A DNA stretch of 64,000 bases, taken from positions 26,622 through 90,621 of the forward strand of contig CAYSKO010000008.1 of the NCBI GenBank assembly GCA_964431835.1, read 5' to 3'. The position numbers and the translations under genes are program-made. The DNA comes from an uncultured Planctomycetia bacterium (GTDB lineage: Bacteria; Omnitrophota; Gorgyraeia; 2-02-FULL-51-18). Below the pieces are notes generated by a model, which had not been told where the DNA came from, made no database searches, and was given only the letters and a program-made list of their open reading frames with translations. Below are positions 6,001 through 45,974 of the stretch, in pieces. Every line of letters starts with the position of its first letter. Within the stretch, counting starts at the first letter, position 1.

Positions 6001-9000
6001 CGACCTGGAAAAACTTTATGCGTCGTTTAAGGCCGCGGAAATCGCGCGGGCCGCGCGAATGGCCGATCCGAACGGGACGCCGGTAACCCCCGATAGTCTG
6101 CGCGCGTCCGTCGGAGCGCTGCGGACAGCTCCGGACCCCGCGGCCTGGAAAACTGCCGCCGAGGATTTGGCCGCGCGCGTGACTGCCGCGACGCCCGAGG
6201 CGCTGGACTTGAAGTTGTACGAGCGCTCGCCCGCGGTCGACGAAGCGCTGTCCGCCCTGCTCGACGCCTACCGCGACGCGCGGTCAGGCCGCGAGCTCCG
6301 GAATACGATCCGCGCGGCGCTGTACTCCGCGCTCGGACGAAACCATACGCTTGCGCCGCTTTACATCGAAGCCCTCGATCGCCTTTACGTGGATAAGGAA
6401 GACGCCGACGACGAGCAGACAAAGGCCAGGCTCGAAGAGGTTTACGCGCGTCTCGGCGTGGTCGTAGAAGGTCACAGCGAGATCTACGCCAGGATACAAG
6501 AATTTGAGACGGTCTATAGCGCGACCGCCGTCGCCGTGACCGCGCTTAAGGGAGTCGAATGGGAGAAGGCCCGCGATCTCTACGGTCTTCCCGGCGAACC
6601 CGGAGACTATGAGCTCCTCGGGCTTAGGGCCCGTTATTATCTGGGCTTGGCCAATAACTCGCTCAATCGCAGAGCGATTCTCAATAAGCCGGGTGATTCC
6701 GAAAAAGCTCGGGTCATGACGCAGCTCGTCCAGGAGTTCCGGGCGAAGGTCCGCGACTCGGAAAAAGAACATGAAAGGGAGCTTCCTGAGGAGGGTGAGG
6801 CCCCCGTAGAGCTTACCCTGCGATTCATCGGCGATATCCAGGCGATCGCCGCGGTCTATTCGCGGCTCGTCGAGCTGTTGCTCCGGGCGGACGCCGAAAA
6901 GGCCGAAGAGCTGCCCCGACTGCAGAGTGGGCTCTATTCCGGCGACGCCGAAGCGGCGCGGCATCTTCTCTGGCTGTCCAAATTCGGCAGTGCGCCGGCG
7001 ATCGCCGCGCTTCGGTTTGCGGGGGCTCCGACGAAAACCGCTGAAGTGGAGTGGGCCCAGACGAACCGTGAGCTCGACGAGCGTCTCGATATCTCCGGTG
7101 CCCGTGTAGCCGATCCGAAGGAGCTTCTGGCGGTCGCGGCGGATAAATCGAAGCCGATCGATGAGCGAAAACACGCGCTGACAACCCTCGCCGAGGTCGG
7201 GCAAGCTGCCGCCGTCGTCGTCACCCAAATAGAAGCGATCCGGATCGATCCCACGGAAGACAACGCACTCAGAGGGCTTGCGTACCTGGCGATCCGTTCG
7301 TACGAAGTGGCCGTGGAAAAAACGGTGCCGGAAGTTCCCGGCCCGGCCGCGCCGGTGCGTCTCGACGATCCTGACCGGCGGAACGCGGCACTGGCTCGCT
7401 GGGAAGGAAAATCGATCAGCCGCGTGAATTTCCTCAATGATCCACGAAACACGGCCGTCGTTTACCGCATGGCCAACCGCGCGGGAAAAGAGCGGAACCT
7501 CCATTTGGGCTGGGCGTTCGAAGTGGACGACGGTGTGCACAAGCCAATCACCGAACCTGAATTGCGCAACCCCGCCGCGATCGAGGCCGTGAACGCGGTC
7601 TTCGTCGAAGCCTTCCGGGAGACCGTGCAAGCCTACGATTGGCAAGACGTGCGCTGGAGCCTCGTCGTCGAAGGCAGTAGCGGATTCGGACTCGAGGCGG
7701 GCGCTTCTCTGGGAATCCGGGCGAGCTCCGTCAACGAGGTGTTGCCCCTTCTCCAGGCGCTCCAGTCTGGCGACGAAGCGAGGATCCGCCGAAATGCGGC
7801 GTTCTTCACGGCGTCGCTCGCGCACGAGTTCGCGCACAACCACCGGGACGAAGCGGCGGGTTTCTCGATGGCCCGCGAACGTGAGGTCGTCTCCCAGATG
7901 GCACAATTTTTATTCAACCCCGCCGAGAACGCGATTTTCAACGAATCGGTCGCGGCGGATCTGGATAAACTCCGGGTTCCCGTCGCGGGGCGGTCTCCGA
8001 AAGAAGCCTTCAATTACGAGTACTACGAAGCGATGCGGATCGCACTTGTTCTCGTGGCGGATCTCGCGCTTTCGTCCCGGGGCGAGTTCCCTGAAATAGC
8101 GGCGGAGGCGGACCGGTTGAAAGAAGGGGACGAGCTCGACGCCCTAAAAGTGTTCGCCGCGTCTTTCGAAAAGCTTCCCCGCGACCGGGCGGCCGCCATT
8201 TTCCGATCTGCCATGGATGCCTTCCTTCCCCTCAATCAGAAAGCGCTACGGGAACGCTATCCTGAGTCGCGCGACCGGGTTTTCGCGTCATCGGGGGCGC
8301 GGCTGGCGGCAGCGGATTCCGCATCGTCCGCTCAGGCCGACGCGCCGGCGGATAGACCCGCCCCCGCATCGGCGATCGAAGCGCTCGCCGCCGGGGAAAC
8401 AGGCGCCGCGCGCGCGGGCGGCCGCGGGCGTGAAACCACGTTCGCCGCCGCCTCTCCGGCCGAGCGTTTCCTCGAGAAGGCGGGTATCACGCTTCCAGCG
8501 AACCCTCCGAACGCCGAGCGTGTCCGTGAAAGCGCCGCCGCCGAGTCTGGCTTCCTTTCGCGTATTCGATGGGCAAGCGGTATGCTCGTTCCTTACGCGT
8601 TCGCGGAACAGGCCGCGGTCGTACGTCAAAACGGAGCGAGGCTGGCCGTTTCCGCACCGGACGGCACGCCGATCGCCGACGTCGAAATGCAATCAGCGCG
8701 CCCGGCGGCGGTTCCCACTCTTGCCGCCCAACCCAAATCCATCCCCGACTACCTCAGGGAATTCGACGGCGCCACAACCCGCGTCGAAGAAGCCATGCTT
8801 CTCGCCTTCGGAGCCGAAGGCTTGGAGACCTTGACGGCCGAGCCCCGCTCGATCGCCATCGACATCGGCGTCCTTCCGGCGAAGCGTCCCGAGTACTTAG
8901 AGAACCTCTTCGTCCAGCTTCTTGCGATGCGCGCGCGTCCCGTGGCCGCCAACGTCTCGTTCCGCCTGACGGGCCCCGGCGTCCAGGAAGCGCTCGCTTC

Positions 9001-9457
9001 GTCCGACTTGGCACGCCAGCTCGTACGGAAGGGAATTATCGACCAGACGCCCGATCCCAAGCTTAAGACCGCCGAGATCGCAGGTATAAACCGCATCGAA
9101 TCCCTCTCAGGTGAGACCTACCTGCCTTTCCGGGCGGTCGAGATCACGGACAAGGAAGCGGGAGTACCGAAGTGGCAGGCGATGATCCTTCTTGCCGTCA
9201 TGGCCTCCGAGATCGGGAAGAAGACCGAAGACCCCGTTCTCCTCAGGCAGTTCTACGAGGCTTACCGCGACGTCTCGGGCCTTTCGGTCGAGAAGCTAGA
9301 GCCTGCGAAGCTCCTAGAAGCTTTAAAGGCGTTCCTCACGGGTACGGCATCCAAATCCTTGGCCGAGGACTACGCGATGCGCGCCGCCCCCATCGACATC
9401 AACCGTATCATCCAGCTCTTCAGCAACATCAAGCGCATTGTGGCGTCGGCCGCGTAA
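8..9457 (+). CDS. Giant multidomain protein A, 5'-truncated by the window edge (>=3149 aa). Contains a eukaryotic-like protein kinase domain, a second kinase-like catalytic core, an HExxH metallopeptidase-like motif and the shared C-terminal module.
   Basis: The + frame is open from the window edge to TAA at 9455-9457, with strong GC3 codon bias throughout. ePK glycine loop plus AxK, GFIKAGGFGDVVKVY...HALKL (nt ~3755-3826), followed by LLDFGLTRPYVAPEQ (4268-4310). HRDLK at 5627-5641 and DFG at 5690-5698. HEFAH at 7823-7837. Five G/A-A-R-M-A/S motifs. The last ~240 aa are identical to the C-terminus of protein B. Confidence 0.8.
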   Translation: MISYHVERGIQPLAVVEPLAVDNYLRGFGYRLADLAATQKIGLSGGRIVVAPDAAVPLTEDGDVEYDTADIPPLTPRNLSAWLPKKDAYVKDAARAQAIIDAIARADGGDVSLVDSGATWDTFELKSQPDLVFKITKLSPGLTDSRFFFEAQAAEMGRLAKGEKALTKQIGGFDLLSIPGFAPFVYAEGFSSEADRPVGLLIQQKGSYAADRELDRARTAAESSGVQGGPLRASDVKLVGGRAVVADFDRVIYSGARMSDAAQRVEIRTFAAGYLEGRPDAEVMRKLVDAYLAFENPRRDAIYNISIAYYDGINRIPADAETKAQFEALLAILETDVKPRAEAVKYKERRINFIANTLGPLFTAFDGREATAPEAAPQKAIETLDKEFRAGIADWLTSNGAPFDVDVARWNAASATADPSLAPEIREELADLKLAKDVLAAKTAEGDPRETFSAALRFARVAQGAYQTLLGKAGRRGLVADTARYGGTGELFGILRLDFGGDEIRRLAVQHSDAAAPDAMRVLILSEILDTLETLDPQAIADDLGLTGGLNVSAFLSDKRGAGDALYRAYTALVTLGKDDAGRPFTFGDMSPEAKTFVRQSFGRHFRAALEESVLGKKGAIGQEGLARIAVIDVPRRARLEAVSAGARMADSIDWVGPFPASVKPEKRDAVAAALVDIANGADVTDFRFLAHALREIGLDLLSADAAAIEPDDIYETFRTILARAAAGKLGAGTMSNARNYIHHFDAIAPALARLAYELWTDTDQGAVGGLKGGLIGSILRAKPDTTFSDVGTLPKMNQLDTGNLDSPLLPFRALNVLAADSSVQTMFAVNESFERALVDVLTRLAGLDAERLTEATFRDRFAEEAARPIAELDGRTFNTIYAETLVELDERARRMLEQPVSLDFAFPFEADAPLAANIDRVINERYGNFAQTKLHKRYIMSQLDALGEREVSAPKTAERPYGPAADLVLESLEKYWREMGRLYSRELPGWGALREIPLRDALPFIILSGELRPKSSDGIVSHELVRMFGLERESATFVRYARARAAAGAEPPADFLSGRALAGLASGARMAITFKGVETGGVLDKEGRAIFESVLARAVYLTGWDNFELFSRTLDRMFDAEGRPLLSLDEIKNASDDFLIEKLREGIAGQIDDYGAYARSSQLFQFEGDSNRFINPYVGSEALAILRALTSLASYSDSAGRSPRTPAEIAAVLEALRIGRVEEGLKTIKDDASYRARVRVLDPTLVYAGFIKAGGFGDVVKVYKNGKPHALKLPGGAYMTGLYTEADRRNAATGIQETVAFAETIMKGGEKTAELRKFLPVLVEAFGADWKEGDTKDPAILMEFIDFDAIPEAEKWIFGGATPQERLDRLRQTAEKFRELQSLMIASTGQYIFDDRISNFNVEVEKDPSGREAIKRLILLDFGLTRPYVAPEQATDDNLATTLPINPFSKTSLMARASRVRRAVPEGVLSADQAAEKLSQTDPVLLESLGDFELFPQNERATLVKNADWTPVIAAEWLSREIELLQFFPTERFEHDLGEMISSKAENAIKYLLTLRPAKDGNGKNKRASVTLRELDLRIDAVDGKQVIYAKGLEIGSLSDTAYVPNVANLVAALGSLDNKPAGARMADEDFSGKVKNAFTSARQALSSEGHLDAQAAEILDFLESRYAGEDFKAARAAQARLSDLVSAEQGTGRRDALKAALGLVAPILGLFATDISARIARRKKEYAAALDVSALPAADFSAYSFTGKTEESAYRFFVATPVSGGPIDILKIGEVRREAIFLDRVRREFPSVAPFIPVFKGYGVLTDVDAMRLGDPTMKGRPYMITSRAEGKRFELTLFELSKGSIGEDEALGAHLAAARAIARLHAAGIAHRDLKDREVFVNPVTGRATIVDFGISAILGDATRGEEDLVKGELHQIGTSVSGRGKGSLNRDVRALVSLLEQIVFAANQSAGRDGRESLIRRLALEEFGLQAKKALVLAQENDAAPAYGIGELLADLEKLYASFKAAEIARAARMADPNGTPVTPDSLRASVGALRTAPDPAAWKTAAEDLAARVTAATPEALDLKLYERSPAVDEALSALLDAYRDARSGRELRNTIRAALYSALGRNHTLAPLYIEALDRLYVDKEDADDEQTKARLEEVYARLGVVVEGHSEIYARIQEFETVYSATAVAVTALKGVEWEKARDLYGLPGEPGDYELLGLRARYYLGLANNSLNRRAILNKPGDSEKARVMTQLVQEFRAKVRDSEKEHERELPEEGEAPVELTLRFIGDIQAIAAVYSRLVELLLRADAEKAEELPRLQSGLYSGDAEAARHLLWLSKFGSAPAIAALRFAGAPTKTAEVEWAQTNRELDERLDISGARVADPKELLAVAADKSKPIDERKHALTTLAEVGQAAAVVVTQIEAIRIDPTEDNALRGLAYLAIRSYEVAVEKTVPEVPGPAAPVRLDDPDRRNAALARWEGKSISRVNFLNDPRNTAVVYRMANRAGKERNLHLGWAFEVDDGVHKPITEPELRNPAAIEAVNAVFVEAFRETVQAYDWQDVRWSLVVEGSSGFGLEAGASLGIRASSVNEVLPLLQALQSGDEARIRRNAAFFTASLAHEFAHNHRDEAAGFSMAREREVVSQMAQFLFNPAENAIFNESVAADLDKLRVPVAGRSPKEAFNYEYYEAMRIALVLVADLALSSRGEFPEIAAEADRLKEGDELDALKVFAASFEKLPRDRAAAIFRSAMDAFLPLNQKALRERYPESRDRVFASSGARLAAADSASSAQADAPADRPAPASAIEALAAGETGAARAGGRGRETTFAAASPAERFLEKAGITLPANPPNAERVRESAAAESGFLSRIRWASGMLVPYAFAEQAAVVRQNGARLAVSAPDGTPIADVEMQSARPAAVPTLAAQPKSIPDYLREFDGATTRVEEAMLLAFGAEGLETLTAEPRSIAIDIGVLPAKRPEYLENLFVQLLAMRARPVAANVSFRLTGPGVQEALASSDLARQLVRKGIIDQTPDPKLKTAEIAGINRIESLSGETYLPFRAVEITDKEAGVPKWQAMILLAVMASEIGKKTEDPVLLRQFYEAYRDVSGLSVEKLEPAKLLEALKAFLTGTASKSLAEDYAMRAAPIDINRIIQLFSNIKRIVASAA
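8734..9453 (+). repeat. Copy 1 of a 720-bp perfect direct repeat; encodes the shared C-terminal ~240-aa module of giant protein A.
   Basis: Base-by-base comparison with 28764-29483 (offset exactly 20030 nt) shows no mismatches. Identity begins at aaatccatccccgactacctc and ends one codon before the stop (GCG TAA here, GCT TGA in copy 2). Confidence 0.9.
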
Positions 9458-9507
9458 CCGATTTTCATAACCCTATCATTTTAAATGGGATACGGAACTC
9501 TTTTCCT

Positions 9508-9536
9508 TTGATCCACTCGCCCTCCTAGTGTATACT
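9508..9536 (+). promoter_or_regulatory. Sigma70-like promoter for giant gene B: TTGATC-N17-TATACT.
   Basis: TTGATC at 9508-9513, a 17-nt spacer, then TATACT at 9531-9536. It sits in a ~125-nt AT-rich island (9458-9582) within an otherwise ~65% GC region. A second TATAAT lies at 9543-9548. Confidence 0.5.
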
Positions 9537-9582
9537 TTTACTTATAATCGCTTAAAATAATGTTATCAGAGTTAATAAAATT

Positions 9583-21500: not shown

Positions 21501-24500
21501 CGCGTCCATCGACGAGGAACTGGGCAGCGCCTCGGTCAAACAGTCGTACGTCATGACGCTTAAGAACGGCGACCGCCGCGCGATCAAGTACGTTCGCCCG
21601 CTCGCGGAGTTCGAGATGGTCGAAAATCTGGCGATCATGCGCAACGCCATCCAGCGGCTCAGGTTCCGGATTCCCGCCCTGAAAGAGCGTGTATCCGACT
21701 CGCTGCTCGACGAGATCGAGAAGTCTGTCCAACGCGAGCTTGACATCCGTCAGGAAGTCTTGAGCCAGCGCGAGCTCGGCCGTTTCTCGAGAGGGGAGCG
21801 TCACGGCGGGTGGACGCTCAAAGTCCCCCGCGTCGACGGCCGTTTCGTCGGTTCGCGGTACTTCGCGGACGAATACGTGGTCGGCGAAGCTCCGAAAGCC
21901 GCGTTCATCGCCGCCGCCGGCGAAAAGACGGCCGCCGCGTTCGCCGGCCTTACGCTCAAGACGGTGGTCAAGCAGGCGCTCCTCTTTGGCAAATACCACG
22001 GCGACCTGAACCGCGGCAATCTCAAGTTTGACGTTCCGGGCACCACCGCGCACCTCATCGACTTCGGCAACACGGCGACGCTTTCCAGGGCGAATCAGGA
22101 CGCCTTCGTGCTGCTTATGGACGCTCTGGCGGCTTCCCACGCACCGGACGCGCTGGCCGCGCTGAGGCGTCTGGCGCCCGCGGGATTGTCTCCCGCGCTC
22201 GAGGCGAAAATCGGCGCTGTGGCGGTGCTGGCCGACGTTCCGGCGGGCGCGAAGATCCAACGCGTGAAAGCCGTGATTGAAGGAGAGGGCGGAAAACTCG
22301 AACCGCAGATCGACTATTTCCTTAAAGTTCTCGAGACGCTTTCTTACCTCACGGGAAACGTCTCCAAAGACCAGATCGCCGAAATCTTCGCGGCGGCGGT
22401 CGTTCGCCGCCAGCTTTCCGTCCGGAACCTGTTCACCCCGACGACCTGGAAGTTCATCTCGCGCCGCCTTTTCGGTTCGTCCGCTCCGGTTCCCGCTCCG
22501 GGCGCGCCCCTGGCTGCCGAGGGTACGGCGGAAATTCCGTCCGTGGCGGCGATTCCGGAGAGCCCGAAGGCACCGGCCTCGAGCGAGCGCGGCGATTCAC
22601 CGGTCGGGGCGCGCATGGCCGAAGCGAAATCCGCCGCCCTCACTCCCGAGGGAGAAGCGCTCAAGCTTCTTGCGCTGTACCGCATCGGCGAGGGGTCTGG
22701 CGACTCCAAGGACGCGAACCGGTTCGCTTTTTCACCCGGAGGATCCCGCCTCCTTCACCGGGATAGGGGCCGCGTCTCGGTGATCGATCCCGCGACCGGA
22801 AAAACGGTTTCGATCGAGCTTCCGGGCGGCTACGAGTGGGCTTCGTTCCGCGGCGAGAACGTGCTCTACGTGTCCTTTCAGGACAAAACCGAACGCGTGT
22901 ATGCGCTTCGGGGGAACGAGATCGTGCAGACCATCGAGGATGAAGACGAACCCGTTTTATCGGCGGGAGGCCTGTTGAGCGTCGGCGGGGGCCGGTCTCT
23001 CTCGTTCTCCGACGACGGAAGTCTCATCTTGGTGGTGTCGGACACCGGTTACTCCGTCCGTCTATCTTCTACGGGGGAGACGCTGGCGATTCCCGACGCG
23101 CGAAAACCCAAGAAGGTGGAGCTGTCGGGAAATTACGTCGTCGTGAGCTTCGACGGCGGCCGCCATGCGATTTACCTCGTCGCGGAAAACAAGTTGTCGG
23201 TCGCTCTCACCGACGATGTCCTCGGAGTCCCTTCCATTGAAAGAGGCTACGCGTACGCCGTTCCTGCCGACGGAAGGGCCCGTGTCTGGGAGTTGGTGAC
23301 CGGCCGCCGTGCACTCGATTTGGAAGGAAGAATCAATCAGGTTAAAATTCTCGACGGGCGGTGGGCGGTCACTGTCGGAGCCAACGACGATACGGCGAAG
23401 CCGGGCTCGCTCGAGATGCAGCTTTACGACCTTCGGACGGGCGAGAATTTCGGAAGGAAGATCGCGCCGGAGGCCCGCGATTTCGCAGTCGACGGGAACG
23501 GCAGGTACGTCGACGTCTTCCTCGAAAACGAAAGGCGCCTGTTCGACTCCGAGACGGGAGCGGATCTAAGCCCCGTCGTTCGCCCCGGATACGACGAACT
23601 CTCTATCCGTGGGAACCGCGCGCTCGTTAAATACGGGCCGGCCGCCCGGATGAACGCGTTCGACGGACGGTACGAGACTTTGTACCGCCTGATCGATCTC
23701 GAAACGGGCAAGGAAATAACGGTCGAAGGGCTCGAAGCGGCGCAGCGGGCAACTCTCGCGCCCGACGGCTCTGCGCTCATTTTTAGAAATGCCGCGTCGG
23801 ACTCGATTCTTGCCGACGTGTCGGGAAAGACGGTCGACCGTTTCGGCACGGCGGGCCGCAAGCTTTACTCGGCGGGTTTCCTGCCGTCGGGCGTCGTCGA
23901 AACGAAAGACCAGAACAACAGGTCCCATCTTTTCGATCTGAAGACGGGCAATTCGCTCGATTCTCTGACGGGGCCGCAGGCGACGCAGCCCGTCGTGTCG
24001 TCCGACGGAAAGCGCGTCGTGGTCATGGATTCCAGCCGGTATTTCCGCCTGGTGGACATCGAGACGATGCGCCGGAATCCCGTTCTCGCTCCGCACGCGG
24101 CCAGGTGGGGCCGGAGCGCCCACTTCGCGCTCGAAATCCTCGCACAGCTGAAACGCGAAGGCCGCTTGGACACCGCCGCCGATCTCGAACGCCTCTTGCC
24201 GCGCGTGACCGAAGCGATCGAGCGTTACGAGGCGGCGGTCACGGATTACAACCGCGACCGCGTCGTGGGTCTTTTCCTGGACGGCAACAGCGTGCTCAGT
24301 GCACCGGTCCTCGAACGCGTGACGGCGAGCGGCGGCGACTCACTCGAATTTTTCCTTTTCTGCATCGAGCTCATGGAATCCGATCGCCGCCTAGCTTTCC
24401 AGATCTTAGACGGCGTCTTCACGGCGGCCAAGAGCGAGGGGCTCGCTTTCGAGGAGAATTCCGCAGTCACCGCGAAGCTCCCCAACGACGAGCGCGAGCG

Positions 24501-27500
24501 GATCCGGCGTTTCGTGGCGCTTACACGCAATTTCAACCCCGAGCTTTACCGCTATTTCCTTGCGACGAGCGAAGCCAAGCTGAAAGAGCTTCTTTTGTTC
24601 TCCGAAAAGATCCTTTCCGACGAAGCGGGAATGCCCGAGATCGAGGCTTTTCTGGCTCGAGCGGCGGGCGAGAAGGACTCCAAAGGACGGCCGTTCGACG
24701 GCGAGCAGCTCCTCTATGCCGTGGTCCAGCGGGCGATCCCGCCTTCCGGCGCTTCGTTTGTCCGGCAGACCGAAGCGCTCGGACTCATGAAAAAATACCT
24801 CGAAGCGGCTCGCGAACGCGACCCACGCGGAGACGTTCCGACCTCGCTCAAAGCCCTCGGAAGGTTCGGCGGCGGCGAAGTGCGGCGCATGGTCTGGCGC
24901 CGCCGCGCGGACGCGGGCGACACCTGGAGCCCTGAAGTGGCGGCTCTGATCGACGCGCTCCGGTATCCCGACGCCGCGCGTCCGACGGACGAGCTTAAGG
25001 CCGTCGTCGCCTCCGACCGCGCGCGCCTTTCCGCCGCGCTCACGGATTTGCTCAAGGATTTCGATAACGACGCCAAGCGGGACGAGGCGCTCGCGGCGTT
25101 CCTTGCGCACGCTGCCCACAGCGACGCGCTGAAAGAGAAGGTCGACCGGATCCAGACAGGAGAACGTGCCGGGCTTCGCGCCCTCGACGAGCTCTTTTTC
25201 GACAAGGACAATCTTGCGATCCTCCTCAACGAAATCCTCGCTGATTTCAATCTCGAAGGGGAAGGAGCCGTCCGCGATGGCAAGCGGCTCGCCCGGTCGT
25301 TGGGCTCGATTTGGGCCCTCCCGCTGGGCGAAGGCGCCCGGCGTGCGCGGCTCGGGATCGCGCTCGCTCCCGTGCGAAACGACGAGGTCCGGTCGAAGAT
25401 TCTCTCTGCTCTGCCGGACGTCCCCGGACTGCGCGCGGAAGTCGAAAAACTGCTCGACTCTCGCGTGAAGCTGCCGGGCGGTCTGATCGACCGTCTCTTC
25501 GAGAAACCGCGGGCGGCGATCTCCCTGGAGTCCGAGCGCTACGTCGAGATCCCTTCGGACAAAGCGGTCCGTGTTCGTTTCCAGGTCGTGAAGGGGCCCT
25601 TGTACGGGATGTGGGGCTTGAACGCGGGCGTTTGCATCGCGGCCGACGTCGCTCTCTGGAAGAGGCCGGAATTCTTCCTCCTGGCGATGATCGACGAGGA
25701 AACCGGCAGCGCGGTCGGGTTCACTCATCTTTTTACCAAGGATTTCGAGGTGGATGGAAAGACGAGCCGCCACCTGACGGTTCCCGGCATCAATCCGAGC
25801 ACGGAAATCCTCTCCGAAGTCCGCGCCTCGGAGCTTTACCCCATGGTCGAGGGGGCGCTCCGAACCGTCGCCGCTGCGGAGGGATACGACCAGATCGATC
25901 TACCGACGGACAAGAACGTGCTTTCGAACCGCAGCGACATCGTCGATCAGGCGGTCCGCAGCGGTTACGACAAAGACGACCTGCCTGAGGAGGTGGGTTG
26001 GAACTCCGTGCCGCAGCCTTACCCCTTCAAGAACGTTTTTGTGATTCCCAAGGGCGCGCGCATGTCCGGAGAGGCCCTTTCGCCCGAAGCCCGTACGGCC
26101 GCTCTCGCTTCGCGGCTCGAGACCGCCTTCCGATCGCTCGGCGAGAGCGCTCCCACCGGCGTGCGTCCCGACACCTTCGCGTTCTTCCGCAGCGCGCGTC
26201 CGACCGCGTTCGACGCTTTCGCCCGCCGTGTGGTGGAGAGTGACGACGCCCTCCTGGACCTGCGTTCGCCCGCCGTCGTGAGGATGGTTTTCCCCGTGAA
26301 AGGACGCGACAGCGTCGTTGTCCGCGTCGGCCGCGAAGGCCTCGATTTCCAGCAAGGCTCCGTTTACAAGATGCTTCCGATCGAGACCGGCGGCGCGACG
26401 AGGATCCCGTTGTCCGGCGTCCGGGCGCGCGACCCCGACGGAACCGTAAAACCGCTCTTCGATTTCCTTGCGGACTTCGGGGTTCCCGCCGAGACCGTCG
26501 CGAAAGCCCGGCTCCAGAGCCTTTCGTTCGAACACGGTTACCACCTCGAAATCGCGGCGGACGGTTCCCTCTCTCTTCCGGACCGCACGACCGGAGACGT
26601 CCAGCGCGCGCAGCTGCGCTTCGACCGGGACGGCGATCTCGTCAGCCGCCATTTCGAGGTCCCCCAGACGCCATCGTCCGAGATCCGGAACGGCCGGATC
26701 GTGTCCCTGGCGGGACACACGCACGGCATCACCGGCGACGACTTCATCTCCGAATTCACGAGCATCGACGTGGGCGTCACGTCCGTGAACGTGGTCAAAT
26801 TGCTCGATGCGCGGAAGCCTGGAGATCCCGCGGCTCTCACGCTCGCCGAGTTCCTGATCACGGAGCGCGTCGTCGGTGAGTTCGAATTCCGCGCGCTGGT
26901 CGTCGAGGTGGAGCCCGATCCGTCCGACCCGAGCGTACCCGCGACCGTGCGCCGGTTCGCGCTTAAGCACGACGCGGCGACCGGCTGGGCGATCGAAACG
27001 ACCGACGACGGCGAGCCGCTCGATTTCAACACCACCGTCGCCGAGCTGCGGGAGGACGTCGAGACGGGCGCCCGCATGGCCGACGAGCGGAAGGCCGAGC
27101 TCGATTATTTCTTCGAGGAGAACTTCATCACCTCCGGCGCCGTCGCCGACGGGAGCATCTTCGACAAGACGCCGATGGAGGTCGTGCACCGCTCGTTCGC
27201 GGAGATCGAAAAGCTCCGCCCGCTCCGGGACGCGCATTACCTGTCGATCGGCGCGGGCGACCTGCGCGACGCGTTCACGGCCGCGTACGTCCACGGAATG
27301 CGCGTGACGGCGATCGAAAAGGACCCGCGCGTGGCCGCCGGAAGCCGCGAGATTCTCGGATTCCCCGACGCCGCGAAGTTTCATGAAGACCGTTTCGAGT
27401 TCAAGGAAGGGGACGCGCTCGCCGAGTCGTGGAGCGACAAGGACGTCGTCTCGTTCTTCTACACGGAGCCGCCGAGTCTCGCGGAAGCGGCCGCTTTCCG

Positions 27501-29487
27501 CGCCCGCCTCGCCGAAAAAGCGAAAGAACTGCCCCCCGGCGCCGTGTTCGCGCTTCTTTTCACCGGCAAATACTTCGACGTCGAGCTCGGCCTGGATTAC
27601 GTCGCGACAATTCCGTTCGTCGCGCCGCGCTACGGCCGCAGCGAATTGCGTCTCTACGCGGCGCCGGCCGCCGGCGCCCGGATCGCAGACGATCCGTTCG
27701 CTACCGAGTTACTCGCGCTTTCCGCGGGAGAGGGCTGGGAAGCCGGGGCCGCCCGCGCGGACCTCGCCGCCCGCGATTCCGGGCCGACAGCGTCCCTCGA
27801 CCCGGCCGGCGCGCGCCTGACGACGCCCCAGGAAGCGCTCGCCTTCGCGGCGGCGGCTCTTGCGGTTGCGGGCGATCCGAAAAAACTTCCTGCGGGGACC
27901 ACTTTCCACAACGCCATGGGACAGTCCGTCTCTCCGAGGACGGTTTCGCCCTTCGAATACATTTCGGGATTCGCGGGTACCGCCCGGACTCCGCGGAGCG
28001 GGGAGCCTTCCGACGTCTTCGTTCTCGGCGAATTCGGCTACCTGACCGTGGACACCGCCGCGCATCCGGGCGCGACCGTGACTTCCTATAACTACCGCAT
28101 GTGCATCGGCGTCGCTGTCCAGGCCGTCGACGCGAACGGCCGCGTTCACGTGGGCGTGTACCACCGCCTGCCGCGTCCGAAACTCGACGAAGCCGTCCTC
28201 GACGTCTTCCGGTTTTACTCGGACAAAGGCTTCCACGACGTGAAGATGACGGTGCTGTACGCGAACGATTGGCAGGATTACGGCGCGGTCCCCCAAAAGG
28301 ACGTCGCCAAGGCGCTCGGTAAAGAGCTCGCGGCCCGGAACGGTGGCGTGCCCGTCTCGCTGCGCCTGGAAACGCATTCGCATTGGGACGTCGCGGTGCT
28401 CGCGGCGACGGCCGAAGGCGCCGCCGTCGTGACTCCCGCCACCGGCGTGCGTTACGCGCCCTGGGGGACGTCGGCCGCGCGGCTGGCCACGGCCGAGGAG
28501 CCCGCGGAATCCCTGCTCGCGCCGGCGAACGCCTCTTATCCGCGCCTCGACGCGGACGAAACGCGCGTGCGGACGGCCGCTGGGGCACTGGCGGCTCTCG
28601 TGTCGCGCATCCCGTTCGGCCGGAACGCTTTCGCCATGGACGTTGACGGAGTCGCCGCGACGGCGCGGCGCGAAGGGGAGACGGTCGTTTTTTCCTCCGC
28701 CTCGGGAGCACGGCTGGCCGCCGTCCCGATCGAGCGCGAGTCCGCCAAAGCCGCCGCCGCGGTCAAATCCATCCCCGACTACCTCAGGGAATTCGACGGC
28801 GCCACAACCCGCGTCGAAGAAGCCATGCTTCTCGCCTTCGGAGCCGAAGGCTTGGAGACCTTGACGGCCGAGCCCCGCTCGATCGCCATCGACATCGGCG
28901 TCCTTCCGGCGAAGCGTCCCGAGTACTTAGAGAACCTCTTCGTCCAGCTTCTTGCGATGCGCGCGCGTCCCGTGGCCGCCAACGTCTCGTTCCGCCTGAC
29001 GGGCCCCGGCGTCCAGGAAGCGCTCGCTTCGTCCGACTTGGCACGCCAGCTCGTACGGAAGGGAATTATCGACCAGACGCCCGATCCCAAGCTTAAGACC
29101 GCCGAGATCGCAGGTATAAACCGCATCGAATCCCTCTCAGGTGAGACCTACCTGCCTTTCCGGGCGGTCGAGATCACGGACAAGGAAGCGGGAGTACCGA
29201 AGTGGCAGGCGATGATCCTTCTTGCCGTCATGGCCTCCGAGATCGGGAAGAAGACCGAAGACCCCGTTCTCCTCAGGCAGTTCTACGAGGCTTACCGCGA
29301 CGTCTCGGGCCTTTCGGTCGAGAAGCTAGAGCCTGCGAAGCTCCTAGAAGCTTTAAAGGCGTTCCTCACGGGTACGGCATCCAAATCCTTGGCCGAGGAC
29401 TACGCGATGCGCGCCGCCCCCATCGACATCAACCGTATCATCCAGCTCTTCAGCAACATCAAGCGCATTGTGGCGTCGGCCGCTTGA
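9583..29487 (+). CDS. Giant multidomain secreted protein B (6634 aa, ~720 kDa) with a signal peptide. Modules include TraB/TIKI-like, degenerate GGDEF-like, APH-like kinase, PI3/4K- or HipA-like kinase, JAMM/JAB, M48-like HExxH peptidase, UbiB/ABC1-like kinase, beta-propeller and SAM-MTase-like, plus the shared C-terminal module.
   Basis: ATG at 9583 to TGA at 29485-29487, one 19.9-kb frame with high GC3. N-terminus MTPSGKRILRPIALLLALIFAFEEAAKA/AP is Sec-signal-like. HGDL at 13681-13692 with DFG at 13777-13785. DAKMKHLLLVND...FVGIDSE at ~15310-15405. JAMM HNHPSG-x-PS-xx-D at 16180-16221. HEAGH at 17923-17937. UbiB motif VGVKFGQQVLG at ~21367-21430 with HGDLNRGN at 21997-22020 and DFG at 22060-22068. 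MTase motif I LSIGAGDL at ~27238-27270. Nine G-A-R-[MIL]-A/S motifs. Confidence 0.85.
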   Translation: MTPSGKRILRPIALLLALIFAFEEAAKAAPISAPPTLDAQAALCADPSSLIVPFESAVLKEIHRGTNGRFVIHIQDAHSNLSGQRNLAAALDSILSSHGVRLVLSEGGADDCSLTPFKKAASKEVWKKVAKTLLVQGQISGEEYLNLTTDRPMKIVGVEDIALYLKSVEHYASLADGREQLLSHLREVRASITRMKARLYPSDIMEYEAAKRAGGSQEADFKALVALASARGESLQDFPEIRRLAATVAREAEIDFELANLEQAALAERLSRAGRPESLRESLEDAAHAGTEKVSQHLRVRALIRSAEEAKVPKADYENLSRYAAYLSDFSEVDLDGVLDELAKAEDRVYYAALPSEDARLLRALDRYATLLETAYSIRMSTKDFAQFRASEADFATIRWQAFLNRRLADAGDFGGMIPQTDLLDRGRRSLEEFYASVTERDFAFVRNLEKTMADEGEKAAVLITGGYHTPHLKKLLREKGYSFAVLTPVVLAETSQQKYESRLLAPLRGRGARTVETVSGQGTAGGSLADLGGEFSRPGKNDGVRAMLLRALASSDESPLNFSQDDLETIRAIRATMQNTFRSVLEAAVVDSLRARNAGLSLEEARPRAKGVVEAIFRELDAPRPAPKAAPARALDSAPRTAEAPYTTAAARMSSEVRAAERAAEFWAENERQKAGAFDLVRGQDKAWVGYSDMMKLGLRDRHYGKLAADYFIIDAISIAQRSLASSGVFAYRLGSGDDVVSMAFPESFDGDRVETALADVQVALETEYRSMAFAVLPPGLPTAALDALSEDESVRTVDFRPYYSNGTADGRPHPQILFKLAEGETHRQGLDRLLAAATLAPGTGDVLEVRAPLLPAAAVRLQAPELRTAQPEKSIEASLKAGELRQSALREMGALVGTEETVAAPQRAKENPLYGDTVNAGVESALAEIRARMNADTDPALPVEREYATYERVALFRILGEARKDRSGTPKLKTVRGPPDNFFFVSSDGKGGWQILLVRESVVALEHDGTLENAFLKNRRESGREGDYERKFGFKQVNDVFGHFAGNQLLKLGSLNLQNSFSEASASSGGLMGLEDVFRATFEAMSRVNEVVAEKGFKIEYDASTALTSAEFPADVESPAILLVLEKLAAARRSVTVESRPEFPGVAIRVYGTENKSTWSQIEEELAEVAAYRAHRAGLELERAHAQIREPRASVAAKNSVPAGARLSIQEVFGEDAPDVLEFVAGTRDLDAVLELLMGEPRRAGDRITTGYAVTLRTQAGPVQRLFFVKKLKSDSSLMRRFQTDEHELAQEAEIATRASRIGHSPSTRFFRFRSGTPGLVTTAAGGESIYRMFVRSEPSDPVRLVLEAAAEALADLHFRAGITHGDLVHPGLEDDLRADHIFWRRDADRIAVEFIDFGLANDKATDGQKAEELRKVVHAVSEYIPRRPDRAALVRAFSEAYEARREGIRNETAGARMALPWSPKSGTGILRFDLERRLPADLPVVRVTDKGLERPAFAGTSAETLLENPALATLLRAEGYEYLTGPQLRSRSFLEGLAAQTAREDLRLYLNQRLVYGVPRAVYARRHSPAVNAAARRVTAQLFRSVVRVHPQSAQMLVPVVADLLSRVPENQLESFLEETPFADTHEKALPFGVVRLVPFLVEWSRTLSEVSAAARGDAIPVQPLLSAGLLMDAGKLGPETVAYALERVRAKWINLGRPVNTTALFALEYAIEAALDAREPRSAAETEFAALERNFRAIDRQLESEPKWLGFAGLLRTKTIGFEGSEYRLRDAEIVAARGRNPVLVLKYDNPQKGELPILLKWTQVRKAKYDRIATRTASLLGLFSYRAQPLRDHADFLRSEWEVVQYRPHELVAFTASDSNAPARQKFVLNQPSFRRMIAAADAPRSNPLRDLGAHFFLQHLLGVRDAKMKHLLLVNDARLGENNNRFVGIDSELLFHYNEALDHVNFTDDGRRPPLTPARLNDVPRVLQPNGDQREFMRRIGAEADGARYLGRVIEGFKNAHETARSKREEILRLVRENVEPGRYEAIRAEVERRLDAPAEIALEEVGLATEAFLPAFRESGARVAAAADSSEAARNAYASFRENEIARIVREARTFRARLFAAAMRLALRTGSSPLSRAMLWFVPVGTTALLDLGPDLAASIGALDRAGYGRFADEIGLYRLRGTGRWLAIRGGRDYFPVRGDFAYELFDVFIHNHPSGHALPSLGDVAAHYNTETEGTPFALIAAGNEWLSFDARALQTGGYFKADQYTVYDLNEKLGKALRTKLGREGLVDLSDPVSLAASREAMGGLGIAIRSVLPSELSDNVVGAAPEPFALLGSTDPRTRYQALSILDRALPQGLAADIFQAFHTDTDVRVQMYALGILSMRIRNDFQALRRAVQPFRNSPFERVKEQAAYIGGSETESPSGARMAGDDWAERFPENLRPVFSRMSPAGRIRVDREIEAYRLLSGRAWLEMVDEIDAWKRGDGILDFHVNAEAIKKFGVYLYLGRRHTQVSPGDKRDRGVALEFATLTQVDLSPASPPRPAPGTVFSPPDATSKTAFGYVDLREHRPVRAWAVGMSTTAVREMLRENGLDIPVRKWREGKTEPNPEALYHTVSETLWPYVAMTGALLSGMEAQRRQSLETVVIQEAFPGRLSEYLEPEEEAQALAVVQAIVAESYSPTPGRVSGARIATTAQAPKTPEQSRRLEAIARTTGATPDNEIVATVRKLAFDAAKNLGLPSEQYAFVLSDSDEINAFFYTADGERVIQFNWGLVQFLHENGILNQAVIEFILGHEAGHSLDIDHSKRDPAARHLQLASEYSADEHGLTANDRSGRTPLGGLLLMRALRRHGKDGGISITYPQTHRREYKILNDIRHRYWENLTTSPEPIDAEPSSFERSRRYQMDSKMYGRLTFERLEEAVELAETPHDVLRLTHLYEKLLSVETVLRTLADGTVGRGAIKNNRWQSFDDFDLNNMEKRGEGAFVERYLRDNGVSPEDYFNDKQKDAIRQWAAKNGMDFRDALFMALSDLANRSLGEFRYATSKNEGRLQPYSSIQPTSDVGPDGQSTFKEPLEFWRMKQARHRELQPLRAKFEARAKVAFGGSALGEADRDRLVTDFLLGGLRYLDQEPADFTPYSVTKIDPDDGYESQDYVYPKPADAVADLAWDDPLAALQDVFRNYRSYENNYVKTRSSKDPAYKAYASDEYSAVQAMKVHHDKLIEDLLGKIGPETSTERLLELYATFHEYYRLMPYSVGGYSKDKQTEQYGFDILKRLSERLATVEEFVSVVPRLAKLVPNKYDSSELAKTWFSKAQTVDELLGALDTLLSEPRLRGGTLKALAAFEENAVRIASAADWSKTKPALALVEGLTATLERHGLDPKKTERREEWPLAAAKAAASLIRLTQSNRSNEVFHGELVVRYYTRFYDGKSPYGRPGAAIRVDYPQTRFLYSENELLRHLEGVFYDKVKALRFFFGNGLPPTAGLLYDLKAENREEMFGLFLANEEAYLRNGMPQEEFDRLLCIFAWEWFGPGRGSSVERLRAFTARLRRSPVNAEFLRAFDGAGYNVQESKEGDPKFEAAAEIAEKIGHDAVGSYYAYFGGYEEYKDPTKDKRREHGLERRSYAPLWATDGRDPRKTDEIRAGNDLYEAWAFAHMGASIEERIAWLVRFHPEPTPYRNGLLLKLVGDPFTAGPAVFAPVLPHLAPDRITDILNRRVLQARKAAGELSFKTYAEVKAVIDAHFPEDSEIGRELFFGWLQNARITPVELNGLRETGALSRLAGDKKKKVAHEIIERMGDDMERQSVEEKREVYLWLAGLAPKPTLIEYYEFTSKTDLDDLPRLLAAGTEAERYAFLTTLLVGDSGVLSDPVQRADLMKTLFEAGTGEKAEASNTRFAVLEEVFEACPEHKQFDILHGALGHFQESSGTAAVSSEALTKRFLTSFGLVGVKFGQQVLGIEDLSDRVPPLDKRYLLNAILHDGGMELLDDVASIDEELGSASVKQSYVMTLKNGDRRAIKYVRPLAEFEMVENLAIMRNAIQRLRFRIPALKERVSDSLLDEIEKSVQRELDIRQEVLSQRELGRFSRGERHGGWTLKVPRVDGRFVGSRYFADEYVVGEAPKAAFIAAAGEKTAAAFAGLTLKTVVKQALLFGKYHGDLNRGNLKFDVPGTTAHLIDFGNTATLSRANQDAFVLLMDALAASHAPDALAALRRLAPAGLSPALEAKIGAVAVLADVPAGAKIQRVKAVIEGEGGKLEPQIDYFLKVLETLSYLTGNVSKDQIAEIFAAAVVRRQLSVRNLFTPTTWKFISRRLFGSSAPVPAPGAPLAAEGTAEIPSVAAIPESPKAPASSERGDSPVGARMAEAKSAALTPEGEALKLLALYRIGEGSGDSKDANRFAFSPGGSRLLHRDRGRVSVIDPATGKTVSIELPGGYEWASFRGENVLYVSFQDKTERVYALRGNEIVQTIEDEDEPVLSAGGLLSVGGGRSLSFSDDGSLILVVSDTGYSVRLSSTGETLAIPDARKPKKVELSGNYVVVSFDGGRHAIYLVAENKLSVALTDDVLGVPSIERGYAYAVPADGRARVWELVTGRRALDLEGRINQVKILDGRWAVTVGANDDTAKPGSLEMQLYDLRTGENFGRKIAPEARDFAVDGNGRYVDVFLENERRLFDSETGADLSPVVRPGYDELSIRGNRALVKYGPAARMNAFDGRYETLYRLIDLETGKEITVEGLEAAQRATLAPDGSALIFRNAASDSILADVSGKTVDRFGTAGRKLYSAGFLPSGVVETKDQNNRSHLFDLKTGNSLDSLTGPQATQPVVSSDGKRVVVMDSSRYFRLVDIETMRRNPVLAPHAARWGRSAHFALEILAQLKREGRLDTAADLERLLPRVTEAIERYEAAVTDYNRDRVVGLFLDGNSVLSAPVLERVTASGGDSLEFFLFCIELMESDRRLAFQILDGVFTAAKSEGLAFEENSAVTAKLPNDERERIRRFVALTRNFNPELYRYFLATSEAKLKELLLFSEKILSDEAGMPEIEAFLARAAGEKDSKGRPFDGEQLLYAVVQRAIPPSGASFVRQTEALGLMKKYLEAARERDPRGDVPTSLKALGRFGGGEVRRMVWRRRADAGDTWSPEVAALIDALRYPDAARPTDELKAVVASDRARLSAALTDLLKDFDNDAKRDEALAAFLAHAAHSDALKEKVDRIQTGERAGLRALDELFFDKDNLAILLNEILADFNLEGEGAVRDGKRLARSLGSIWALPLGEGARRARLGIALAPVRNDEVRSKILSALPDVPGLRAEVEKLLDSRVKLPGGLIDRLFEKPRAAISLESERYVEIPSDKAVRVRFQVVKGPLYGMWGLNAGVCIAADVALWKRPEFFLLAMIDEETGSAVGFTHLFTKDFEVDGKTSRHLTVPGINPSTEILSEVRASELYPMVEGALRTVAAAEGYDQIDLPTDKNVLSNRSDIVDQAVRSGYDKDDLPEEVGWNSVPQPYPFKNVFVIPKGARMSGEALSPEARTAALASRLETAFRSLGESAPTGVRPDTFAFFRSARPTAFDAFARRVVESDDALLDLRSPAVVRMVFPVKGRDSVVVRVGREGLDFQQGSVYKMLPIETGGATRIPLSGVRARDPDGTVKPLFDFLADFGVPAETVAKARLQSLSFEHGYHLEIAADGSLSLPDRTTGDVQRAQLRFDRDGDLVSRHFEVPQTPSSEIRNGRIVSLAGHTHGITGDDFISEFTSIDVGVTSVNVVKLLDARKPGDPAALTLAEFLITERVVGEFEFRALVVEVEPDPSDPSVPATVRRFALKHDAATGWAIETTDDGEPLDFNTTVAELREDVETGARMADERKAELDYFFEENFITSGAVADGSIFDKTPMEVVHRSFAEIEKLRPLRDAHYLSIGAGDLRDAFTAAYVHGMRVTAIEKDPRVAAGSREILGFPDAAKFHEDRFEFKEGDALAESWSDKDVVSFFYTEPPSLAEAAAFRARLAEKAKELPPGAVFALLFTGKYFDVELGLDYVATIPFVAPRYGRSELRLYAAPAAGARIADDPFATELLALSAGEGWEAGAARADLAARDSGPTASLDPAGARLTTPQEALAFAAAALAVAGDPKKLPAGTTFHNAMGQSVSPRTVSPFEYISGFAGTARTPRSGEPSDVFVLGEFGYLTVDTAAHPGATVTSYNYRMCIGVAVQAVDANGRVHVGVYHRLPRPKLDEAVLDVFRFYSDKGFHDVKMTVLYANDWQDYGAVPQKDVAKALGKELAARNGGVPVSLRLETHSHWDVAVLAATAEGAAVVTPATGVRYAPWGTSAARLATAEEPAESLLAPANASYPRLDADETRVRTAAGALAALVSRIPFGRNAFAMDVDGVAATARREGETVVFSSASGARLAAVPIERESAKAAAAVKSIPDYLREFDGATTRVEEAMLLAFGAEGLETLTAEPRSIAIDIGVLPAKRPEYLENLFVQLLAMRARPVAANVSFRLTGPGVQEALASSDLARQLVRKGIIDQTPDPKLKTAEIAGINRIESLSGETYLPFRAVEITDKEAGVPKWQAMILLAVMASEIGKKTEDPVLLRQFYEAYRDVSGLSVEKLEPAKLLEALKAFLTGTASKSLAEDYAMRAAPIDINRIIQLFSNIKRIVASAA
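28764..29483 (+). repeat. Copy 2 of the 720-bp perfect direct repeat (shared C-terminal module of giant protein B).
   Basis: Identical to 8734-9453 (compared line by line). Confidence 0.9.
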
Positions 29488-29515
29488 TCTGGCCCGGGGA
29501 GGGCACCGCCCTTCT

Positions 29516-29543
29516 CTTGTGAAATCCCGCCCGTTCGGTATAA
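29516..29543 (+). promoter_or_regulatory. Sigma70-like promoter for acnA: TTGTGA-N16-TATAAT.
   Basis: TTGTGA at 29516-29521 and TATAAT at 29538-29543. SD GAGGAAA precedes ATG 29577. Confidence 0.45.
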
Positions 29544-29576
29544 TAGGATTTCCATAACCCGAGGAAATCCGAGCCC

Positions 29577-31871: not shown

Positions 31872-31893
31872 GCCCTATATAAGGAAGAGCGCC

Positions 31894-32124
31894 GTGGAAG
31901 AACGTCGCATCGTCGATTTAAAGCCCGAGCCCGCGGAAGAAGGGGAGATTCTTTACGACCGTCCGAAGGCGCCTTCGCCGTGGCGCGGATTCGCGGTCAA
32001 GATCGTGGGCATCGCGGCGGGGGTCGCACTTTTTCTCGTGCTTCTGACGCTTTTCGTCTACGTGGTCGTTCCGGTCGTGGCCGTCCTCGTCCTTTTTGCG
32101 ATCCTCCGCCGCTTTTTCCGCTGA
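31894..32124 (+). CDS. Small hypothetical membrane protein (76 aa, one long hydrophobic helix).
   Basis: GTG start preceded by AAGGAAG. C-terminal half IVGIAAGVALFLVLLTLFVYVVVPVVAVLVLFAIL is a transmembrane segment. No homology recognised. Confidence 0.3.
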   Translation: MEERRIVDLKPEPAEEGEILYDRPKAPSPWRGFAVKIVGIAAGVALFLVLLTLFVYVVVPVVAVLVLFAILRRFFR

Positions 32125-32222
32125 ACGGAGAGCGAGTCGCTAAAATACCCCTTTTCTCCTCCTGGGCTTCATGTTATAAATTTACGTAAGGAAGTCGTTT
32201 TTTTAAAAAAATGCGAGGGATC

Positions 32223-33245: not shown

Positions 33246-33273
33246 AACCGGCCGCGGCCGGAGGGACTAGCCA

Positions 33274-35084: not shown

Positions 35085-35095
35085 CCCTCTCCGTC

Positions 35096-35124
35096 TTGAC
35101 GAAAAGGGCGGGTCCGGGTATCCT
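35096..35124 (+). promoter_or_regulatory. Candidate promoter: TTGACG-N17-TATCCT.
   Basis: Read directly from the intergenic region upstream of the OmpA/LysM gene. The -10 element is weak. Confidence 0.25.
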
Positions 35125-35195
35125 AAAAGGCTATAGGTCGCTCCGCCGGCCCTTACCGCAACTAAAAAAGATTCCCAAAAACGAAGGTGGTCTGA

Positions 35196-36316: not shown

Positions 36317-36344
36317 AAAGGTCCTAAAAGGAGAATAACGCGAA

Positions 36345-37046: not shown

Positions 37047-37070
37047 TTCGATTCGGACAACCGCTTAAGA

Positions 37071-37105
37071 GGGGAGCTGGGCGCTCAAGCGACCGGCTCC
37101 CCTTT
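37071..37105 (+). terminator. Candidate rho-independent terminator after the BI-1 gene.
   Basis: GGGGAGC (37071-37077) pairs with GCTCCCC (37096-37102) around an 18-nt loop, followed by TTTCGGTT. The large loop lowers confidence. Confidence 0.35.
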
Positions 37106-37126
37106 CGGTTATCCGGCGGACAAAGA

Positions 37127-38857: not shown

Positions 38858-38867
38858 GGAGTCCCGA

Positions 38868-39494: not shown

Positions 39495-39579
39495 ACTTAA
39501 AGCTGTTAATAATTGACGAAGATATTCATCTTCTGATAAAGTCGTTCCAAACGGGGACGACCCAGAAACGGAGGCAAGC

Positions 39580-40257: not shown

Positions 40258-40263
40258 GATGAA

Positions 40264-40821: not shown

Positions 40822-40832
40822 AAAAGAGCCCC

Positions 40833-44576: not shown

Positions 44577-44577
44577 T

Positions 44578-45900: not shown

Positions 45901-45974
45901 TATAATAAGAACAGAAAACTCGAAGCGTCTGCGGCGGCCTGAGGGATTCCCCGCCTTCTCCCCTGGCGTAAGTT

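Follow-up and report, generated by a model that had tools for sequence, protein, structure and literature searches.

Two giant genes and their terminal block

The stretch of contig CAYSKO010000008.1 analysed here (64,000 nt in full length, hereafter the window; GC content 62.6%) opens inside a giant gene, A, which is followed in tandem by a second giant gene, B. Their open reading frames (ORFs) are the two longest in the window, both lie on the + strand, and the last 240 codons of each are formed by one and the same block, called the module below. Direct comparison within the window gives 720 identical nucleotides out of 720 between positions 8734-9453 and 28764-29483 (offset 20030), as a preliminary description made from the sequence had claimed, and this match can be extended by zero bases on either side.

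Read in frame, the block begins one base later, since base 8734 is a chance match inside the codon preceding the module. The 240 codons thus occupy 8735-9454 and 28765-29484 and encode the protein segment from ...KSIPDYLREF to ...NIKRIVASAA. Over these codons the identity is 719/720 nt, and the only difference, which is synonymous, falls on the third position of the last Ala codon (GCG in A, GCT in B), so that the A and B proteins are identical through the last residue of the 240-aa module. The stop codons then differ (TAA in A, TGA in B) and are followed by unrelated spacers. The preliminary description, which placed the end of identity one codon before each stop, was essentially right in this respect.

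The main features of the locus are as follows.

8-9457, + strand: 3' 9.45 kb of giant gene A (ORF list), cut by the left edge of the window; the full product is P0001, 6,037 aa
8450-8734, + strand: diverged homologous stretch of A before the module (BLASTP), about 95 aa, 33% identical to B; it holds the last GARLA of A (8633-8647)
8735-9454, + strand: module copy 1, last 240 codons of gene A, stop TAA at 9455-9457; exactly identical to copy 2 apart from the last synonymous base
9458-9582, + strand: AT-rich intergenic spacer between A and B, with two promoter-like sites (9508-9536 and 9552-9581), unrelated to the spacer after B
9583-29487, + strand: giant gene B (ORF list), product of 6,634 aa identical to P0002
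28492-28764, + strand: diverged homologous stretch of B before the module (BLASTP); it holds the last GARLA of B (28705-28719)
28765-29484, + strand: module copy 2, last 240 codons of gene B, stop TGA at 29485-29487; also found in the contig L085 discussed below, where it is preceded by the body of A
29488-29576, + strand: spacer between B and an aconitase gene, with a promoter-like site at 29517-29544

P0001 and P0002 are database singletons, both derived from one 94,443-bp NCBI contig. P0001 ends in the 3,149-aa ORF of the window, so that gene A is about 18.1 kb long; the length of about 8.7 kb upstream of the module, given earlier for this gene, has to be corrected, because the gene runs off the window edge. 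The module therefore makes up approximately the last 4% of each gene. At the same offset, flanking 100-nt bins are 23-40% identical, which is random for the composition, and the pair is the sole repeat of at least 40 nt within the window.

That the module is a piece of a mobile element, or a foreign cassette that was recently acquired and inserted in two places, has nothing in its favour beyond the exact duplication itself and is extremely improbable. The module lies in frame as the natural C-terminus of both proteins, its GC content at third codon positions (0.80) is close to that of the host genes (0.75-0.77), the window contains no inverted repeats, and the module carries no Pfam or NCBIfam domain, neither a transposase nor any other mobility domain. 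It matches no plasmid, phage, viral, metagenome or genome contig. Nothing was thus found to identify it as a known mobile or insertion-sequence fragment, the possibility against which the preliminary description had set its own claim.

Age of the paralogs and origin of the identity

Outside the module, homology of A and B is detectable at the protein level in two places. Their N-terminal domains (N-domains; the copy of A lies outside the window) are 48.6% identical over 543 aa, and the 94 aa just upstream of the module are colinear and 33% identical (BLASTP, E=0.003 against the whole body of B). The approximately 5,000-6,000 aa between these two regions are unalignable between A and B and contain sparse Pfam matches only. 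The earlier statement that the upstream parts of the two genes are non-homologous at this level has to be corrected accordingly.

N-domain homology, the same architecture and tandem position in one genome identify A and B as paralogs, and their separation is old. The N-domain distance between A and B is 0.495, versus 0.43-0.45 from each of them to genes of other genomes. In a neighbor-joining tree of N-domains (without bootstrap), A groups with the family gene at locus L008 and B with those at L005 and L007; since L007 and L008 come from one other metagenome-assembled genome (MAG), the A/B split would appear to predate the divergence of the two genomes. A recent duplication of the whole gene was considered and is excluded by the identity values of the N-domain (49%) and the pre-module stretch (33%) and by the N-domain distances.

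Because A and B are by N-domain distance closer to genes of other genomes than to each other, a segmental transfer is required to explain the module. The tract is discrete, with 719/720 nt identical versus 33% aa identity in the adjacent 94 aa and 49% in the N-domain; it lies in frame at homologous positions of both genes and ends at the last codon. With a split this old, the identity of 719/720 could not have been inherited from the duplication, and the terminal unit was either copied very recently or held identical by repeated conversion.

Such C-terminal sharing is exceptional among relatives of these genes. All-versus-all BLASTP of the last 320 aa was performed with 27 sequences (22 family ORFs from GTDB loci, 3 database relatives, A and B), and no similarity was found between paralogs of the same genome; in CAZJAX01, CAMDWQ01, CAYSFB01 and JBLINS01 the C-terminal regions of same-genome paralogs are unrelated. 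The closest parallel in arrangement, a tandem pair at locus L047, has N-domains 53% identical and C-termini unrelated beyond the tail. No long repeat of at least 90% identity was found at the 3' ends of family genes in about 1 Mb of related loci.

The reading preferred here, to which we assign a probability of roughly 70%, is a recent non-reciprocal copy-over (gene conversion) of the C-terminal unit of the family between A and B. We infer a recombination mechanism, and with it a direction: the terminal unit of one gene would have been copied very recently over that of the other, probably by homologous recombination of the non-reciprocal type (interlocus gene conversion) or by a comparable replacement of the segment. 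As direct repeats of 720 bp at a distance of 20 kb, the two copies are now a substrate for RecA-type recombination and a trap for assemblers. Of the two origins offered in the preliminary description, very recent duplication or gene conversion of a common C-terminal domain, both are supported as events limited to this tract.

The protein family and its terminal unit

The N-domain has no Pfam or NCBIfam match. Its relatives number 27 in the database searched (E-values down to 1e-148), where the named ones are proteins of Omnitrophota/Omnitrophica MAGs, and 152 in GTDB species genomes, from which 80 loci were taken. Many MAGs carry 3-5 paralogs, and most family ORFs encode 1,500 to more than 3,900 aa. 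The N-domain also occurs in shorter proteins of about 600-900 aa, for instance P0004 (locus L001) and P0016 (L004). At positions 236-3945 of L001, the N-domain gene (618 aa) is followed, with an overlap of 16 nt, by a 622-aa ORF that contains GARMS and ends in ...VWTSA; this pair may be a frameshifted or split form of a single family gene. The MAGs carrying the family (L005-L084) are labelled variously as Omnitrophota/Omnitrophica, 'uncultured Planctomycetia', 'Eisenbacteria' and 'proteobacterium', so that either the taxonomic labels are unreliable or the family reaches beyond Omnitrophota. The window itself is assigned to an Omnitrophota-like bacterium by its best hits.

The predicted structure of the N-domain (predicted local distance difference test, pLDDT, 82) has a fold like that of the TIKI/TraB/ChaN/erythromycin-esterase superfamily with a helical insert of about 270 aa. 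In prediction, the N-domain of A and B has an alpha/beta core with a parallel sheet as in ChaN, Ere and TraB structures. An alignment of 24 N-domains yields a candidate catalytic 2His/2Glu set by sequence conservation: H469 and E159 are invariant, while H78 and E106 are conserved in at least 90%. The likeness to this superfamily concerns the N-domain of A and B and not the module.

The bodies of these proteins are punctuated by a pentapeptide, G-[AS]-R-[LMI]-[AGS] ('GARMA/GARLA', written GAR[LM]A below), of which A and B each contain 9 copies versus 0.3 expected. Family ORFs contain 201 motifs in 149,978 aa (4.2 expected), while control ORFs from the same loci contain 4 in 172,354 aa, and the enrichment in the family is roughly 50-fold. 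Around the motif only position -1 is conserved, as a small residue, and neighbouring copies are separated by a median of about 300 aa. The motif looks like a delimiter of units, which could serve for cleavage or as a docking peptide; no publication on the GAR[LM]A pentapeptide was found.

The features of A and B that concern this architecture are listed below.

9583-9669, + strand: Sec-type signal peptide of B, judged probable from the sequence (MTPSGKRILRPIALLLALIFAFEEAAKA|AP), with a hydrophobic core of KD15=2.5
9700-11322, + strand: N-domain of B, aa 40-580, 49% identical to its counterpart in A; TIKI/TraB/ChaN/erythromycin-esterase-like core fold with a large helical insert
770, 1943, 3209, 4877, 8294 and 8633, + strand: motif sites of A within the window (15 nt each; motif scan)
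13198, 13951, 16819, 17605, 22606, 26053, 27067, 27673 and 28705, + strand: motif sites of B (15 nt each; motif scan with GAR[LMI][AS])
9353-9454 and 29383-29484, + strand: tail regions of A and B, the last ~34 aa, ending ...KRIVASAA
5474-5722, + strand: weak, sub-threshold protein-kinase-like match in A (Pfam)
17722-18009, + strand: M48 peptidase match in B (Pfam)
21415-22131, + strand: ABC1 kinase-like match in B (Pfam)

From the last GAR[LM]A to the C-terminus, 254-387 aa are counted in 12 family members, 273 aa in A and 259 aa in B, and the module begins 20-34 aa past this last motif. As the distances in A and B fall within the range of the family, the identical 240 aa are essentially the terminal unit of the family minus its first 20-34 residues.

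The terminal unit has a characteristic end. [SA]A stands at the C-terminus of 16 of the 22 complete family ORFs (L006, L017, L021, L032, L033, L037, L040, L047-L051, L053, L054, L056 and L057) versus 9 of 297 control ORFs (3%; Fisher p=3e-16). The whole signature is an amphipathic helix, typically with R/K at -7 and I/V at -5, followed by [SAI]-[SA]-A-COOH; the terminal helix of the module lies at the 99th percentile for hydrophobic moment. With a right-anchored ungapped position-specific scoring matrix built without A and B, the tail of A and B scores z=+3.1, a value reached by 13 of 12,125 internal windows of A and B. Pairwise comparison of the module with family C-termini by phmmer and BLASTP was negative. 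What the module has in common with the family is thus limited to a terminal signature and a position, and the match of the tail lies in the ungapped matrix and the terminal residues. A distant subfamily (L074, L077 and L079) ends in ...LWSV, ...QYSV or ...LWSL and is free of any GARLA motif.

N-domain homology, GAR[LM]A enrichment and a terminal unit ending in [SA]A are all found in A and B. The best explanation is that they are old tandem paralogs in a multi-copy family of secreted giant proteins, mainly known from Omnitrophota MAGs. The proposed architecture of this family would comprise a Sec-type signal peptide followed by the TIKI/TraB/ChaN-like N-domain of ~540 aa, then a fast-evolving body of great length in which GAR[LM]A pentapeptides recur, and, past the last of them, a terminal unit of about 250-390 aa with the amphipathic helix and [SA]-A-COOH at its end.

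Searches with the module itself, a check suggested in the preliminary description, returned almost nothing beyond A and B. When the last 336 aa of A were run by HMMER against 1.84 billion representative proteins, only A, B and one marginal TPR protein were retrieved, and a word-indexed search of 5.8 billion proteins gave zero matches. Sequence searches of Pfam, NCBIfam and PDB found nothing, nor did protein-guided scans of GTDB genomes, JGI metagenome contigs and viral contigs, an exact-DNA scan of metagenome contigs, or tblastn against 72,556 plasmids and 50,697 phage records. Because no homologs were found, no deeper alignment was available for structure prediction, which had also been suggested; the single-sequence AlphaFold model is poor (pLDDT 49), alpha/beta and then helical, and its Foldseek matches are meaningless (best E=0.05, TM<0.3).

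Two classes of known C-terminal signal were considered for the module and rejected. A sortase or exosortase anchor of the LPXTG or PEP-CTERM type does not fit, since there is no LPxTG, the maximal 19-aa Kyte-Doolittle mean in the module is 1.13, and the end is an amphipathic helix with SAA. Substrates of type I secretion systems (T1SS), such as giant RTX adhesins, are very large and Cys-poor, and their uncleaved C-terminal signal combines an amphipathic helix with a short end made of small residues. A and B resemble them in size, in Cys content and in their C-terminal amphipathic helix with small residues. However, both N-termini look Sec-type (AQA|AP and AKA|AP, read from the sequence), GGxGxD is absent from A and B (zero occurrences), no T1SS genes are found in the 34 kb downstream, and the terminal [SA]A of the family is far more conserved than is usual in T1SS signals; an RTX-type substrate is therefore rejected as well. 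A hydropathy scan found no further transmembrane-like segment in A or B. Cys depletion is extreme (2 Cys in 6,037 aa of A and 7 in 6,634 aa of B), which is consistent with export in an unfolded state.

The conversion could be driven by function if the module serves in docking, export or oligomerisation and has to match one partner or to pair A with B, so that selection favours identity. The family-wide terminal signature, the strongly amphipathic terminal helix and the position of the module as a discrete unit after the last GAR[LM]A agree with such a role. On the other side, in other genomes 3-5 paralogs have mutually unrecognisable C-terminal regions, which means that identity is not required for the function of the family, and no conserved partner gene adjoins its members: the recurrent neighbours are nuo (complex I) genes, whose presence reflects the synteny of a single ortholog group and does not mark a dedicated partner. 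The module model with its pLDDT of 49 gives no help either, and we consider selection for identity unlikely.

As the best reading of these data, we infer that the module carries the terminal recognition element of the family (amphipathic helix and [SA]A) for an export, processing or docking step. The identical ends of A and B would be a side effect of recombination that the function does not demand, since dissimilar terminal units suffice in other genomes. The role in sorting, secretion, anchoring or docking proposed in the preliminary description is thus supported only indirectly, by the fit of the module end to the family signature, and no partner, fold or known signal class was found that would specify it.

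Downstream of B, diderm housekeeping genes are located: aconitase, a deoxyhypusine-synthase-like gene, OmpA, TrpE, PurH, MnmE, AccA and the Mla system. The deoxyhypusine-synthase-family gene (32211-33245; Pfam DS, E=1e-44) stands among these housekeeping genes 3' of the giant genes. No tRNA and no Rfam element was found in the window. Non-self relatives of its MnmE are only 53-58% identical and come from MAGs of the same kind as the carriers of the N-domain, which indicates a lineage without a close sequenced relative.

Independent assemblies and the meaning of the repeat

The same population is present in JGI samples 3300020596 and 3300020057 and in Logan runs SRR6448207, SRR6448209 and SRR6448212, at 99.9-100% identity. 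Only one independent contig, Ga0163149_10003424 (L085/L089, JGI, 18,095 bp), extends into the module. After 8 aberrant bases it runs through window positions 8417-9453 (317 nt of the A body and the module) directly into 29454-46533, all at 100% identity. Comparison of its positions 1-1138 with window positions 8417-9453 and 29454-29576 demonstrates that gene B is omitted and that the module ends in the GCT TGA context of B. Its first 8 bases have no match to A and resemble a fold-back of sequence located about 40 nt downstream. The warning that a perfect repeat of this length is a site of assembly collapse or recombination is borne out by this contig, in which the A body, the module and the flank after B are joined at 100% identity.

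Such a join is exactly what crossing over between the copies is expected to yield, with loss of the spacer, of the B body and of one copy of the module. The population could thus hold both the arrangement with A and B and a B-less recombinant, the repeat acting as a switch for gain, loss or shuffling of a 20-kb giant gene. This structural polymorphism agrees with the GCT TGA context and the 100% identity of the join, and the population occurs in at least five samples or runs. However, a repeat that can be entered and left in two ways could equally well give this contig through an assembler's arbitrary choice of path. We lean towards the assembler path, because the contig ends 317 nt into A with a fold-back-like tip, and regard the polymorphism as plausible but rather unlikely.

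A further suspicion, that the window contig is a chimera with one true copy of the module (A body, module and aconitase, as in L085) and that the C-terminus or the position of B is an assembly error, draws on the same B-less order and on the fact that no independent contig with the junction of the B body and the module was retrieved. Four junctions have nevertheless to be accounted for: A body/module, B body/module, module-GCG-TAA/A-B spacer and module-GCT-TGA/aconitase spacer. The separate stops, the unrelated spacers and the two bodies that make up these junctions require two copies of at least the module ends. Each junction needs reads in any k-mer graph, and the only linear order that uses all four is that of the window. 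Moreover, the B body joins the module in frame at a position homologous to that in A (33% identity over the preceding 94 aa), copy 1 has its own last-codon variant, its own stop and a spacer that leads into the start of B, and L085, stopping 317 nt into the A body with its aberrant bases, looks like a contig tip. A chimera is accordingly very improbable.

Under a consensus collapse, the modules would be homologous and only near-identical (e.g., 97-99%), merged in the assembly graph, and their identity and sharp edges would be partly an artefact. At 720 bp the repeat is longer than the usual inserts of short-read libraries, it is resolved differently in a second assembly of this population, and the several samples that contain the population show small differences at other places (99.9% identity, an indel near 46.2 kb). 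Against this, L085 is 100% identical to the window on both the A side and the B side and gives no sign of variant positions inside the module. Collapse is unlikely on balance, and even if it were true, recent homogenisation of the C-terminal unit would still stand.

At about 46203-46249, in an unannotated ORF (46061-46870), assemblies of this population differ: the window coordinates to which the contigs L086 and L090 align overlap by 47 nt, which is consistent with a changed copy number of a short tandem repeat. Two JGI contigs break near 46.5 kb.

Several points weigh against a recent copy-over between A and B. Gene conversion needs flanking similarity, yet at both ends the identity breaks off knife-sharp, together with any detectable nucleotide homology; conversion may have covered the full length of modules that already resembled each other enough to recombine, or a one-off replacement took place and its ends were selected for an intact frame. 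Sharp edges fit a single copy-paste and a long-standing homogenisation equally well. No orthologous module was found in the databases searched, so that a tree of modules cannot be compared with a tree of flanks. L085/L089 links the A body to the downstream flank of B, while the B body/module and module/A-B spacer junctions are not confirmed there, and the interiors of the copies could differ slightly and have been merged into one consensus by the assembler. Finally, a gapped hidden Markov model of family tails misses the tail of A and B.

In the concerted evolution of duplicated bacterial genes such as tufA/tufB, RecA-dependent conversion holds two copies of the same genome nearly identical between unrelated flanks; there the whole coding sequence is homogenised, unlike the last 4% of each gene in A and B. 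The closest documented analogue is the babA/babB/babC group of paralogs in Helicobacter pylori, which encode Hop outer-membrane proteins, which have near-identical ends and a divergent middle, and in which intragenomic recombination makes chimeras and homogenises the 3' region (PMC4552749). A and B share with them a (near-)identical terminal region and a divergent middle in paralogs of the same genome. In contrast to the bab genes, which encode about 700 aa, are dispersed and are more than 90% identical at both ends, A and B are tandem genes of 18-20 kb, identical in the C-terminal unit only, with N-domains that have drifted to 49%; nor is C-terminal sharing general in their family. Giant proteins of Omnitrophota have been described as very long, mostly unannotated ORFs with N-terminal export signals and scattered kinases and peptidases (bioRxiv 10.1101/2023.11.21.568195; bioRxiv 10.64898/2026.06.07.730766). 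A and B belong to the same kind of lineage, since the N-domain relatives are mostly from named Omnitrophota MAGs; unlike the classes of 10-30 kaa treated in both papers, they measure 6.0-6.6 kaa. A text search of both papers found no mention of a TIKI/ChaN-like N-domain family, GAR[LM]A, the [SA]A tail or paralogs with an identical C-terminal module.

The evolutionary mechanism proposed for A and B is accordingly of a known kind, and the locus is a new example of segmental gene conversion between paralogs. More novel are the undescribed architecture common to a large family of giant proteins of Omnitrophota and the disagreement of assemblies at the repeat.

A joint reading of these elements, quite unlikely as a whole, could be formulated as follows: the family would consist of undescribed exported polyproteins of the 'beads-on-a-string' type, in which the N-domain cleaves at GAR[LM]A, the terminal unit is a common recognition or docking module, and the modules are recombination handles. 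The TIKI-like N-terminal hydrolase would then process the chain at the GAR[LM]A sites. By analogy, the context x-[SA]-G-A|R-L-A resembles a cleavage site of the AxA type, and the fragments would end in small residues like ...S-A-A. Identical modules would let a population delete, regain or swap gene bodies of 20 kb, and the B-less JGI contig would be a real example of it.

Giant bacterial genes are hard to assemble, and their evolution is poorly known. The locus described here is a clean case, in which one terminal unit of two genes of 18-20 kb is homogenised while the rest has diverged beyond recognition. The repeat already makes independent assemblies of one population disagree, and should this disagreement have a biological cause, a 20-kb gene with a product of 6,634 aa would be gained or lost. 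The TIKI/ChaN-like N-domain, GAR[LM]A and the [SA]A tail provide testable landmarks that bear on the processing and export of this family.

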